This document shows positions 57,001 through 60,000 of a stretch of 64,000 bases of DNA, in pieces. Source of the DNA: a virus; IMG/VR virus record IMGVR_UViG_3300035666_000015, positions 5,541-69,540 of that record; one strand, given 5' to 3'. Positions within the stretch are counted from its first letter, which is position 1. Each line of letters starts with the position of its first letter. Position numbers: made by a program.

Positions 57001-60000
57001 ATGTACAACTTCTTCTGTTTCTTTCTGATGGCTGCTTAACATCAGACTGTGTTTATTTAATCGATAAACCAGCTGGGATATATCAAGGAACTCACCCAAA
57101 CTAGTAATAGCTGGAAGATTAATATCTGCTAGGCAGCATGTTTCAAAATCTTCCAAACTTTGTTCTGCACCATTTTGTTCAACACGATTCGCTAATTCGT
57201 GCCCGTCTTTCGACTGCTACATATCACTATGCAGATCGGACTATATCATCTTGTGACGCGCTTCCACCCGCTTGGGTGTACTCTACTCTTCTACGATTTG
57301 AGTTCTCTAAAAAGTCTGCCCAGGTGTCATTGCCGTCACCATTACAATGGGTACAGTAGATTACACCGTCTCCTGGTTTAGGCTGTTTTACTTTGGGATC
57401 TTTTCCCGTACCACTACAGTTTGGGCATATACTTCTCATTAACACTCTCCTATAGAATTTCGATAGTCTCTACACTTTCTAAACCCGCCAAGGTTTCTGT
57501 TTTAACTTAAATCTTTTGTTATTAGCTCGTGAGCGTGTTCCATCTAAATATGTCACATTTGCTGTATCGTTATCCGAAAGTGATTTAGACACTTTGGCAT
57601 AACGAACACTCTGAATGAATCTGAATTTAAAACCATCATCATCAAATAATGTATCAGAGATGTTTAGAACTATGTTTATAAAGTCACCTGTAAGCCGACT
57701 CCTCATAAGAGAGCCTACAGCTGGTTGAGTATTTATAGGTGTTTGTTTAAAAATCACTTGACGCATTTATGACACTCCTCTAGTAGTCATGTCAGTTAAT
57801 ATACAACTTGGCGGGTCTAGCTTAGCTCGGGATTGCCTACGTGAGGTGTTCCCCGAATTCACGTCATTTTAAATCCGCCTGCTAGTGAAACGGATTATAT
57901 CCAACTACTTTTGGATCAGGATATCTAGTATCACCTAATCTACCAACTTTTCTAGAGAGTTCTGGGTTTATCAGACCATAACACTCTCCATTGCCTTTAT
58001 AGCCTTCCCAGAAGTATTCGTGCAAATCCTCTAGATCGCTACAAGCAACACTGTTATTACTCATAGCGCGCCAAGGTGGAATATTGCCTAAGTCCCAACG
58101 TTTGGCCAACAAATATTCAATATCATCAGGATCACCAATGCACAACAAAGCAGATCGCCTAACGTTGCCTGCAACTATTATTGCAGCAATGATATTCATG
58201 ACATCCAAACAATCGATAGGCCTTACACTACGACCGCGACGTTTCATCAAGACTTCTGAAATTTGCTGAAGACCTCTGCATAAATCTTCAGGCCCAGAAG
58301 CCACCCCGCCAAATCCTTTGATTGGTGTACCTTTACCACGTATAGCTTGTGTTGAGTACGTAAAGGTTCCCTTCTCAGCAGAATCACTCAAGAAAGCTGC
58401 TTTCAGGGTCTTACCTAAGAACCTTACCCAACCCTCACGCGAGTCTGGTATGATGAAATCAGCACCACCGTGATCAACTCGTGTAGGGGGTTTAAACCAA
58501 GATTTAACAGGAGGTAGCTTTTCAACATATTGTCGTTGAATGCTAAAACCTACACCGCAGCCTAATCCTAGCATATCCATGGCCCAACAGAAAGGTCTGA
58601 CAGGGCTGTCTATCACCTTAAACGCGCAGTTTTGCAAAGAAGATAATCCTAAACGATCAACTGTAGGAGTTCCTAATTGCCACAAGAATCTGCCAGCAGG
58701 AAATGCTTTTAGCTGTAGCATATATTCTGCTAACCTTATTGCTTCATCTTTCGAGAAGACACCGCCTAGCTGGGTTTCAGAGGCGTTTATTATCCGTAAT
58801 ATCGTATCCGGCCATTCTTCTTGCTGACCGTTTTCCATTTTGCGACTATATGTTCGCTTGTAGGTAAGGTAACCGACAGTAGACCACGGAGTCTCAATTT
58901 TTGGCAAATCGTTAATAGTTAGTTGCATTCAATACCTTTTCTTTCATTAGCAATTGTATTTCATCCATGGTTGTTGGACCGGATTGCAAATCCCACTGCA
59001 AACCCAGGGCATTCATTATACTATCATCTGTCATATGGAATACACCTAATTCTGTTTTCAATAACCAATCACCTATATATGCAATTTCTGAATCTGACTT
59101 GCCATATATTATTGCTGCATTACCTTTGTACCAGCTACAAATACCATTACTAAAAGCAGCAGCTTCGTGTCGACTTTCATTTGTCAGCTTAAATCCTTGT
59201 AGATTTATTAGCATATATAAGATCGTTAAATTCTGGCATGCCTAGAGTATACAGCAAGGCATGTGTGGAAGTGTGAAATATGCCGAGTCGTGATTTAAAA
59301 GCAACATCACCTACACATATGCGACATTCTTCATCATTCAACCCACGATACTCTATCTCACGTTTTATAGGAGGCAACCTAGTACCTTTTATCGATCCGT
59401 TAACGAAACTGACCATTTGGTCAAAATTATCAACTGTCAACATAAGGATTTCAAACTCTACAGTTAATTTTCTTATTTCCATTTCTAATCTTGAATTATA
59501 TATTTCACAGGTAACACACCGCTAGTGCCAACAACACTAAGGGCCAAAACAATATCCATATAAGTCTTGCAAATTTTCCATAGCGTTTAGAGATCTTGAA
59601 GAAATCTTCGCCAATACCTCTTCCGAAGTTGATGTATACTAGAAAGAACAATGTGCCCGAAATGAGTACATCCACTAGATTAATCCGTATCAGTCAGTGA
59701 ATGTAAGCTATCAGGCGTATCTGACAAGCTTGCTGGAATACGCTTGAAGCTATTTTCACACACAATACTTTCTACAACCTTCGCTATTTGAACACATTTG
59801 CCTCTCATCTGTTCTGTAGCGGCGGCTTCCTTTGCTATATCGAGGGCATCTGCAAAAGTATTAGCAGAGTCAAAGATTATACCTTCTCTTTCAGCTAGTA
59901 CATAGTATTTATTGGTAGACATGAATCCTCCTAATCAAATGAAGTTACTTGGGTATCCACTGGGTATAATCGACCAGTAGCTATTTTATAAGTTGCAGCT

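Follow-up and report, generated by a model that had tools for sequence, protein, structure and literature searches.

We analysed a 64,000-nt stretch of phage DNA (hereafter the window; bases 5541-69540 of the 69,540-bp IMG/VR virus record IMGVR_UViG_3300035666_000015, which is rated complete) and found that its nrdJ gene, encoding a class II ribonucleotide reductase (RNR), is interrupted by a 719-nt group I intron in which the P8 hairpin is absent and two peripheral hairpins, P6a and P7.1, each carry an open reading frame (ORF). Our preferred explanation, to which we give a probability of about 0.6, is that the intron still splices, that the ORF in P6a (ORF1) is the remnant of a longer phage gene, and that the ORF in P7.1 (ORF2) arrived with a younger insertion. 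In the usual description, a phage group I intron consists of a ribozyme and a single homing endonuclease gene. Neither ORF is matched by an HNH, GIY-YIG or LAGLIDADG model of Pfam or PHROGs, in agreement with an earlier inspection of the DNA made without database searches (the sequence-only reading), which had taken the intron for a neutral landing site holding two small phage genes. The sequencing runs in which this phage occurs are lake and freshwater metagenomes.

The intron boundaries proposed in that inspection were confirmed by the host gene, which is the only RNR large subunit found in the 69.5-kb genome. The exon-1 ORF (58928-57882) continues for two codons into the intron and ends at a stop at 57884-57882, and the C-terminal barrel is encoded by a separate ORF (57156-56281, minus strand). 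The last base of exon 1 is U 57890 and the first of exon 2 is G 57170, which leaves 57171-57889 to the intron; removal of the intron, whose terminal G is 57171, restores a Cys codon and yields the protein sequence GYNP-C-AEQSL. The insertion site is the codon of the catalytic (thiyl-radical) cysteine. Among 33 related nrdJ loci found by tblastn in viral contigs, exactly one codon separates the exon-1 and exon-2 matches in 28; four contigs end before the site and one (L016) has an in-frame intein there, leaving the site uninterrupted in 28 of the 29 relatives that cover it. Both exons are open and, judged by their substitutions, are under purifying selection: relative to a phage ~93% identical that carries the same intron, third codon positions account for 27/30 of the listed differences in exon 1 and 6/8 of those in exon 2 (33/38 together; these counts refer to the listed differences, and 86 more exist beyond them). 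The 3’ core of the intron differs from that of the same relative at 3 of 162 nt.

Other mobile elements were seen in the nrdJ genes of relatives. The intein of L016, at the same NP|C site (L016:5008-6191), runs from CLTGDTLV... to ...LLVHN|CAEQ and is broken by a stop and a separate 244-aa ORF. This arrangement resembles that described in PMC2677866 for NrdJ from lake metagenomes, in which a split intein is accompanied by an endonuclease that stands free (a ‘fractured gene’). At other nrdJ sites, sister introns hold LAGLIDADG-like ORFs (L017, L039) or a GIY-YIG-like ORF (L035), on motif reading only.

The intron presents a U-G pair in P1 at the splice site, a terminal G, restoration of the reading frame, a P3/P7 pseudoknot core with P4-P6, the J8/7-P7’ guanosine-site consensus, and both P7.1 and P7.2 (Table 1). 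Our reading of the core was guided by Rfam alignments of the introns of Klebsiella phage RCIP0053 and Escherichia phage PhAPEC5, with P4-P6 assigned by likeness to the Rfam-aligned RCIP0053 homologue, in which P3 covaries (CAGAUUG/CGGUCUG at the same position). The minimum free energy (MFE) fold of the whole intron is more stable than those of shuffled sequences (z -4.25) and contains the 14-bp P6a stem CUAGACCCGCCAAG / CUUGGCGGGUUUAG (57820-57807 / 57492-57479), a genuine inverted repeat that, as had been proposed, loops out ORF1. The last ~113 nt match introns of DNA-polymerase and thymidylate-synthase genes in 52 cultured-phage records, the 3’ third being 71-90% identical to known phage introns, and at least 119 stretches of viral contigs contain the P7.2 motif. 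An alternative P3’, CGAAAUUC (57462-57455) pairing with GAAUUCG (57860-57854), was rejected: homologues place P3’ after P7.2, and the segment lies partly in an insertion absent from a relative. No Sigma-70-like promoter was found on the coding strand inside the intron.

The absence of P8 had not been remarked in the sequence-only reading. We surveyed 74 distinct intron cores from viral contigs with the P7.2 motif, in 63 of which the spacing between P3’ and J8/7 could be measured. The P7.2/P3’ motif and the J8/7 motif are 11 nt apart in the window, as against 19-33 nt in 61 of the 63; the other two have 84 and 366 nt in this interval, and the remaining 11/74 cores have a different J8/7 motif or an ORF within P8. 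An alignment with four homologues leaves a 17-column gap exactly over their P8 hairpins. The ~93% relative also lacks P8, since its contig matches positions 56600-57283 without any insertion or deletion, and so does a second relative encoding the ORF2 homologue P0065, whose last 20 residues over that region are identical. Because the P8 hairpin is missing, we class the element, on its sequence, as a variant of the IA2 group I introns rather than as a standard member. In three viral contigs with a related core (L066, L081, L095) the P8 position opens into a Shine-Dalgarno (SD) sequence and an ATG, which suggests P8-loop ORFs; on this basis one may speculate that the missing P8 is the scar of a lost P8-borne endonuclease gene.

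No match to ORF1 was obtained in Pfam or PHROGs. The proteins nearest to it, P0002 and P0003 (140 aa each), are 83% and 71% identical to it, the P0002 match covering 85% of ORF1, and a profile of the family is matched at positions 1-94 of 135 only (E 4.6e-36). The full profile comprises the barrel motifs GDLIR, INIVL, IRSVRY and G.RSR, then W..VEE and a C-terminal helix, DN..R..I...VDT; the window copy does not span it, the C-terminal third being absent and its last 15 residues aligning to nothing. These residues look like out-of-frame read-through; they and the stop fall within what was once 3’ untranslated sequence and within the P6a 3’ strand (57492-57479). By alignment, then, ORF1 is a truncated member of an unnamed phage family of 117-140 aa. 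The sequence-only reading had allowed that the ORFs might be fragments of a decayed homing endonuclease; ORF1 does align as a fragment of a longer, decayed gene, but that gene belongs to no known endonuclease family.

We compared window positions 56600-58500 with contigs from four sequencing runs, three of metatranscriptomes and one of DNA. In 4/4 runs, otherwise matching contigs diverge from the window at 57534, inside codon 78 of ORF1, and reading them by hand past this point, one frame off, gave a peptide similar to the C-terminal helix of the family (RNLSIL, where P0003 has RRLSIL) and a stop at 57524-57522. The truncated form was found on seven contigs and is thus not an assembly error. 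An internal deletion of ~130-180 nt would have fused codon 78, out of frame, with the original 3’ end, translation now running to the UAG in the P6a 3’ strand, and would have taken the last two strands and the C-terminal helix of the protein. ORF1 is most likely a dead gene, because such a deletion removes the end of the fold and shifts the frame. An 11-nt direct repeat (10/11 identical) links 57522-57532, at the point where the relatives’ ORF1 diverges, with 57822-57832 in P4’/P6, and may be due to chance. Both ORFs have their own SD sequence, as had been said (Table 1); the further proposal that a TGACA...TGTCA stem gates translation of ORF1 found no support, as the hairpin exists but 44/200 shuffled sequences fold equally well.

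The family to which ORF1 belongs is otherwise mostly a free-standing phage gene, so that the free-standing homologues suggested as a check do exist. A HMMER scan found 13 representatives and a profile search 58 clusters, typically of 117-140 aa; ORF1 alone and ORF2 alone returned no related loci in viral contigs, alignment A1 returned none in metagenome contigs, and tblastn of ORF2 and P0002 against 50,697 phage records gave no match. AlphaFold predicts for P0002, from a 60-sequence alignment, eight strands and a C-terminal helix (predicted local distance difference test, pLDDT, 87.5; predicted TM score, pTM, 0.81), i.e. a putative beta-barrel plus helix, of which the window copy would be without the last two strands and the helix. 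Residues G18, R22, N31, R55, G76 and R78 are invariant in the family, R52 and R80 nearly so, and the alignment has no invariant Asp, Glu or His. No endonuclease family of Pfam or PHROGs, with LAGLIDADG, GIY-YIG, HNH, His-Cys box, PD-(D/E)xK and EDxHD/Vsr-like enzymes considered, was found for ORF1, ORF2, P0002, P0003 or any of 60 family members. Foldseek of the P0002 model against PDB and BFVD gave no match at E 0.001 or better: the top PDB matches, single-stranded DNA-binding (SSB) proteins and oligonucleotide-binding (OB) folds, were rejected (TM ~0.2), and the BFVD matches were to uncharacterised proteins only, at E 0.01 or worse. VIA-align returned YccV/HspQ-like, EF-P/KOW, Tudor and MazF/Kid folds with Z scores of 4-5.3, less than the tool itself regards as meaningful. 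No hit of a profile search against PDB sequences had an E-value below 0.22, and no ESM Atlas score exceeded 0.82.

The free-standing gene lies between a DNA ligase gene and a nucleotidyltransferase-like gene in seven loci (L002, L005, L007, L058-L060, L061) and adjoins a DNA polymerase gene in two (L063, L004). Just upstream of the ligase gene in L058-L060 (1531-2037) we noticed a 168-aa ORF that by eye resembles a free-standing HNH/NUMOD-type endonuclease. In L003, a T7-type RNA polymerase gene is interrupted by an intron whose P6a loop houses the family gene, and the stem ACC(C)GCCAA ... UUGGCGG flanks both intron-borne copies (2/2) and none of the free-standing ones (0/6). The two intron-borne proteins are only ~35% identical. 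Each of four virus records (4/4) has a single family copy, and the slot beside the ligase gene is empty in both phages with an intron-borne copy. A tree places the known free-standing copies in one 43-row clade (support 95/82) with the two intron-borne lineages outside it and not resolved as sisters, so the tree cannot tell one capture by an intron from two. The family was absent from all 119 loci with a related intron core (0/119), and all three phage genomes searched for family-carrying introns also have several group I introns.

ORF2, which the sequence-only reading had correctly traced from beyond the P7 5’ strand through P3’ and P7’ into P9 and which we could place more exactly in P7.1, contains two CxxCxGxG motifs (CPNCSGTG and CTHCNGDG). 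Its last 19 codons overlie P7.2, P3’, J8/7, P7’ and P9, with the stop (57229-57227) in the P9 5’ strand, so that the proposed overprinting of the ribozyme core by one ORF is borne out; its SD and opening ~52 codons belong to a 178-nt segment. That segment is optional. In contigs of a ~93%-identical relative (runs X12 and X13) six letters stand in for it and make P7.1 a plain hairpin, UCC-GAAA-GGA, as in homologues, and these contigs provide the same intron without the second ORF, which had been suggested as a check. None of the 74 surveyed cores (0/74) has more than 60 nt at the P7.1 position, and no other copy of the segment was found in the genome. The segment folds as a closed domain (z -2.8; equalled by 0/200 shuffles) with the SD paired inside. 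Contigs of runs X12 and X13 also differ in the P5 loop, where 206 other letters replace 57841-57843; in this relative P5 would be the third loop to be expanded, which fits loops that tolerate insertions. Elsewhere in the window, a free-standing 77-aa ORF (55312-55545, minus strand) has two CxxCxGxG-like motifs and matches PHROG 6060, annotated as a Q-like antiterminator (E 1.2e-05); as the motif alone aligns, a duplication giving rise to ORF2 is unsupported.

These observations suggest the following course of events. P6a and P7.1, two solvent-exposed peripheral hairpins, would have been expanded by ORF-bearing DNA, and since both expansions close with a stem, the catalytic core should still be able to fold. 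ORF1 would be the remnant of a gene resident in the intron lineage, from a predicted arginine-rich beta-barrel family that otherwise occurs as a single free-standing copy. ORF2 would be a younger insertion into P7.1 supplying a DnaJ-type zinc-ribbon mini-protein of ~50 residues, of a sort common among small proteins of phages, to which the pre-existing core adds 19 codons, the tail thus apparently being imposed by the RNA. Ribosomes translating this tail would unwind P7.2, P3’ and P7’, making translation and splicing mutually exclusive for a given RNA molecule. The intron very probably still splices, because the nrdJ gene around it is kept intact, and it is probably immobile now or moved in trans, since neither ORF is a recognisable homing endonuclease.

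The ORF1 family could itself be an intron-associated protein not recognised before, whether a homing endonuclease of a new kind or an RNA-binding, maturase-like helper of splicing; the intron would then be in the degenerate phase of the homing cycle, its endonuclease gene decaying after fixation. Residence in the same P6a loop within the same stem in introns of two different genes, where 0/6 free-standing copies have that stem, points this way, and ~35% identity between the intron-borne proteins implies long retention in the intron lineage; the family is free-standing in at least three contexts, as endonuclease genes are, the window copy has decayed, Arg-rich invariant residues would suit nucleic-acid binding, the phage genomes searched for family-carrying introns (3/3) have several group I introns each, and an intron without P8 might require a protein helper. 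We nevertheless regard it as rather unlikely. Invariant Asp, Glu or His residues and Pfam or PHROG matches are lacking, the best fold matches are weak (Z at most 5.3), consisting of SH3/KOW/Tudor-like barrels and a MazF-like fold from no endonuclease family, 0/119 related intron loci carry the gene, and most copies sit in one slot after the ligase gene in phages only 33-50% identical in this protein, a pattern suggestive of an ordinary gene inherited vertically. A stronger version, in which the family is a new class of intron-resident proteins (small arginine-rich beta-barrels of no known endonuclease fold) that mobilise group I introns or chaperone their folding, has moved with its P6a stem between introns of different phage genes, and belongs to a lineage in which a group I intron works naturally without P8, strikes us as somewhat less likely again. 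The overall pattern fits either an ordinary replication-module gene captured by an intron lineage or a new intron-associated factor. The sequence-only view of a neutral landing pad with two intact, functional small phage genes holds in so far as the loops contain non-endonuclease ORFs, a relative has an expanded P5 loop as well, the ORF2 segment is optional, good SD sequences precede both ORFs, and ORF1’s family is mostly an ordinary free-standing gene of which this phage has no other copy. Against it, ORF1 lacks about one third of the family fold and has an unrelated tail, being not an intact gene but the remnant of a 117-140-aa protein, ORF2 has a single known relative, and the presence of the family in the same loop and stem of a second intron argues for long association with an intron lineage rather than for neutral landing. 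We consider this view improbable.

The preferred explanation, a probably splicing intron with an ORF1 remnant and a younger ORF2 insertion, must also be weighed against doubts about ORF2 and about splicing. ORF2 is probably a real mini-gene: its SD is well spaced, its nearest ESM Atlas clusters by language-model features are viral hypothetical proteins of 58-62 aa (score 0.93), and its sole homologue, P0065 (86% identical), retains all four Cys and four Gly of the two complete motifs, ten of residues 1-50 being altered and the last 20 being unchanged. It may instead be no gene at all, the 178-nt segment being a structured RNA expansion of P7.1 that is open by chance, and this we hold to be a real if minority possibility: the segment is closed and unusually stable, the DnaJ_CXXCXGXG (PF00684) score is 19.5 bits against a Pfam threshold of 32.7 (both repeats being present), there is one homologue, and the eight motif residues would survive ten changes in 50 positions by chance with a probability of ~0.14, short of statistical significance. 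Several points weigh against our explanation as a whole. Because of that last figure, the coding status of ORF2 is weakly supported, and its AlphaFold model is poor (pLDDT 39.6). The deletion scenario for ORF1 draws on protein alignments and 30-letter loose ends, and the truncated form, stable in the population (seven contigs), could keep some activity. At the Rfam gathering score (50 bits) the intron is not matched, and in E-value mode RF00028 scores far below that threshold (21.3 bits, E 0.0073), aligning over J8/7-P7’-P9 only; homologous introns with ORFs score 34.6-38.4 bits, and the absence of P8, together with large insertions in two loops, explains much of the low score. We know of no group I intron without P8 that splices, and literature searches returned nothing relevant on such introns or on phage intron ORFs of unknown function, which does not prove that none has been published. 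Contigs from the RNA libraries cross both exon-intron borders with no spliced joint among them; a joint was likewise absent from the contigs of all four runs, which is uninformative either way, as contigs are unable to reveal rare forms and RNA libraries may contain DNA. The absent P8 and the unseen spliced contig would fit a dead intron in an nrdJ pseudogene. Yet both exons are open, most of the listed exon differences (33/38) from a relative with the same P8-less intron fall at third positions, the core is more conserved than the exons, and the 20-residue ORF2 tail over it is identical in the 86% relative, which together make a dead intron very improbable.

Table 1. Features of the interrupted nrdJ locus (window positions).
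Feature	Position	Strand	Evidence or remark
nrdJ exon 1 (class II RNR, N-terminal part)	57890..58928	-	Pfam RNR_Alpha 47.7 bits, RNR-II_ins_dom 45.4 bits
Group I intron, IA2 type, without P8	57171..57889	-	719 nt
P1: exon AAUCCGU 57896-57890 / internal guide GCGGAUU 57878-57872	57872..57896	-	U-G wobble at splice site
P3 5’ strand UGACGUG, then J3/4 AAU, P4 UCGGG	57860..57866	-	partner CGCGUCA 57260-57254
P4-P5-P4’: UCGGG / CCU-CACGU-AGG / CCCGA	57827..57856	-	sequence, MFE fold, likeness to RCIP0053
P6a 5’ strand	57807..57820	-	inverted repeat I1
Hairpin UGACA...UGUCA around ORF1 SD	57770..57794	-	-8.6 kcal/mol
ORF1, 95 aa, in P6a loop	57479..57766	-	GAGGAG (57780-57775) 8 nt before ATG
P7 5’ strand GACUA	57464..57468	-	partner UAGUC 57243-57239; Rfam alignments of intron and homologues
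P7.1 segment, 178 nt, with ORF2 SD and first ~52 codons	57284..57461	-	joint in relative 57283/57462
ORF2, 70 aa (72 aa from GTG 57445)	57227..57439	-	AGGAG 7 nt before ATG
P7.2 hairpin CACCC-AAGC-GGGUG (57278-57265) and start of P3’	57259..57283	-	25/25 nt identical to RCIP0053
Rest of P3’ (CGCGUCA 57260-57254) and 4-nt linker in place of P8	57248..57258	-	
P9: CUGCAUA-GUGA-UAUGUAG	57217..57234	-	Rfam alignment
3’ peripheral helices and terminal G	57171..57216	-	78-84% identity to intron 3’ ends of cultured phages
nrdJ exon 2	56281..57170	-	Pfam Ribonuc_red_lgC 33.3 bits; exon-1 contiguity in relatives
Terminator-like hairpin 3’ of exon 2	56269-56248	-	

The genome holds further candidate group I introns. 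At least four more RF00028 matches (99.6, 74.5, 48.5 and 47.7 bits) occur in window 28501-31145 (minus strand) and at G000:C1:4864-5118; the sole Rfam match at the gathering threshold is one of these other introns (30903-31145). Three of the additional matches lie within ~2.6 kb, in or adjoining an 869-aa ORF (33738-31129), and a 220-aa ORF after the first of these intron cores (30874-30212) resembles an HNH-type endonuclease by motif only. A primase-helicase ORF (875 aa, 59931-62558, minus strand) contains an intein-like insert with the LAGLIDADG-type motif LAGLLDTDGS, ending ...THNSGSIKQ.

The locus is informative in several respects. Insertions of whole segments into P5, P6a and P7.1 distinguish natural relatives that share one lake habitat, and show how genes enter and leave intron loops. 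The unnamed ORF1 family links two introns of different genes to a common free-standing phage gene, and is a candidate mobility or splicing factor or a true non-endonuclease cargo. Should the intron splice without P8, the requirement for a minimal natural group I core would be narrower.

The introns of T4 td and nrdB are IA2 group I introns of phage DNA-metabolism genes. Like such introns, the window intron interrupts a nucleotide-metabolism gene at a conserved catalytic site and loops an ORF out from a peripheral hairpin, the 3’ end of the ORF running into core sequence, and it shares with the DNA-polymerase introns of RCIP0053 and PhAPEC5 the U-G P1, the terminal G, the P3-P7 core, P7.1/P7.2 and the J8/7-P7’ consensus. 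It differs from them in lacking P8 and any recognisable endonuclease, in bearing ORFs in two loops rather than one, and in its expanded P7.1 (0/74 relatives). A gene other than a homing endonuclease is also found in a fungal mitochondrial rnl intron, which carries rps3. IStrons (PMC4227781) are group I introns joined to an insertion sequence. As in both of these systems, an intron loop hosts a gene other than a homing endonuclease, but the gene there encodes a ribosomal protein or a transposase and the setting is an organelle or a bacterium, whereas here a phage intron holds a decayed gene of an unnamed family and a putative zinc-ribbon mini-ORF. Several non-overlapping ORFs in one intron are reported in PMC11835236, and defunct intron endonucleases together with homing by trans-acting endonucleases are described for T4-like phages in PMC3984707; the ORFs treated there belong to known endonuclease families, and those of the window do not. 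Finally, both ORF starts could fold into hairpins, as predicted here, much like the ribosome-binding-site (RBS) hairpins that sequester the starts of phage endonuclease genes (PMC2677866); compared with these, the ORF2 SD is paired in the predicted fold, whereas the ORF1 hairpin is no better than chance.

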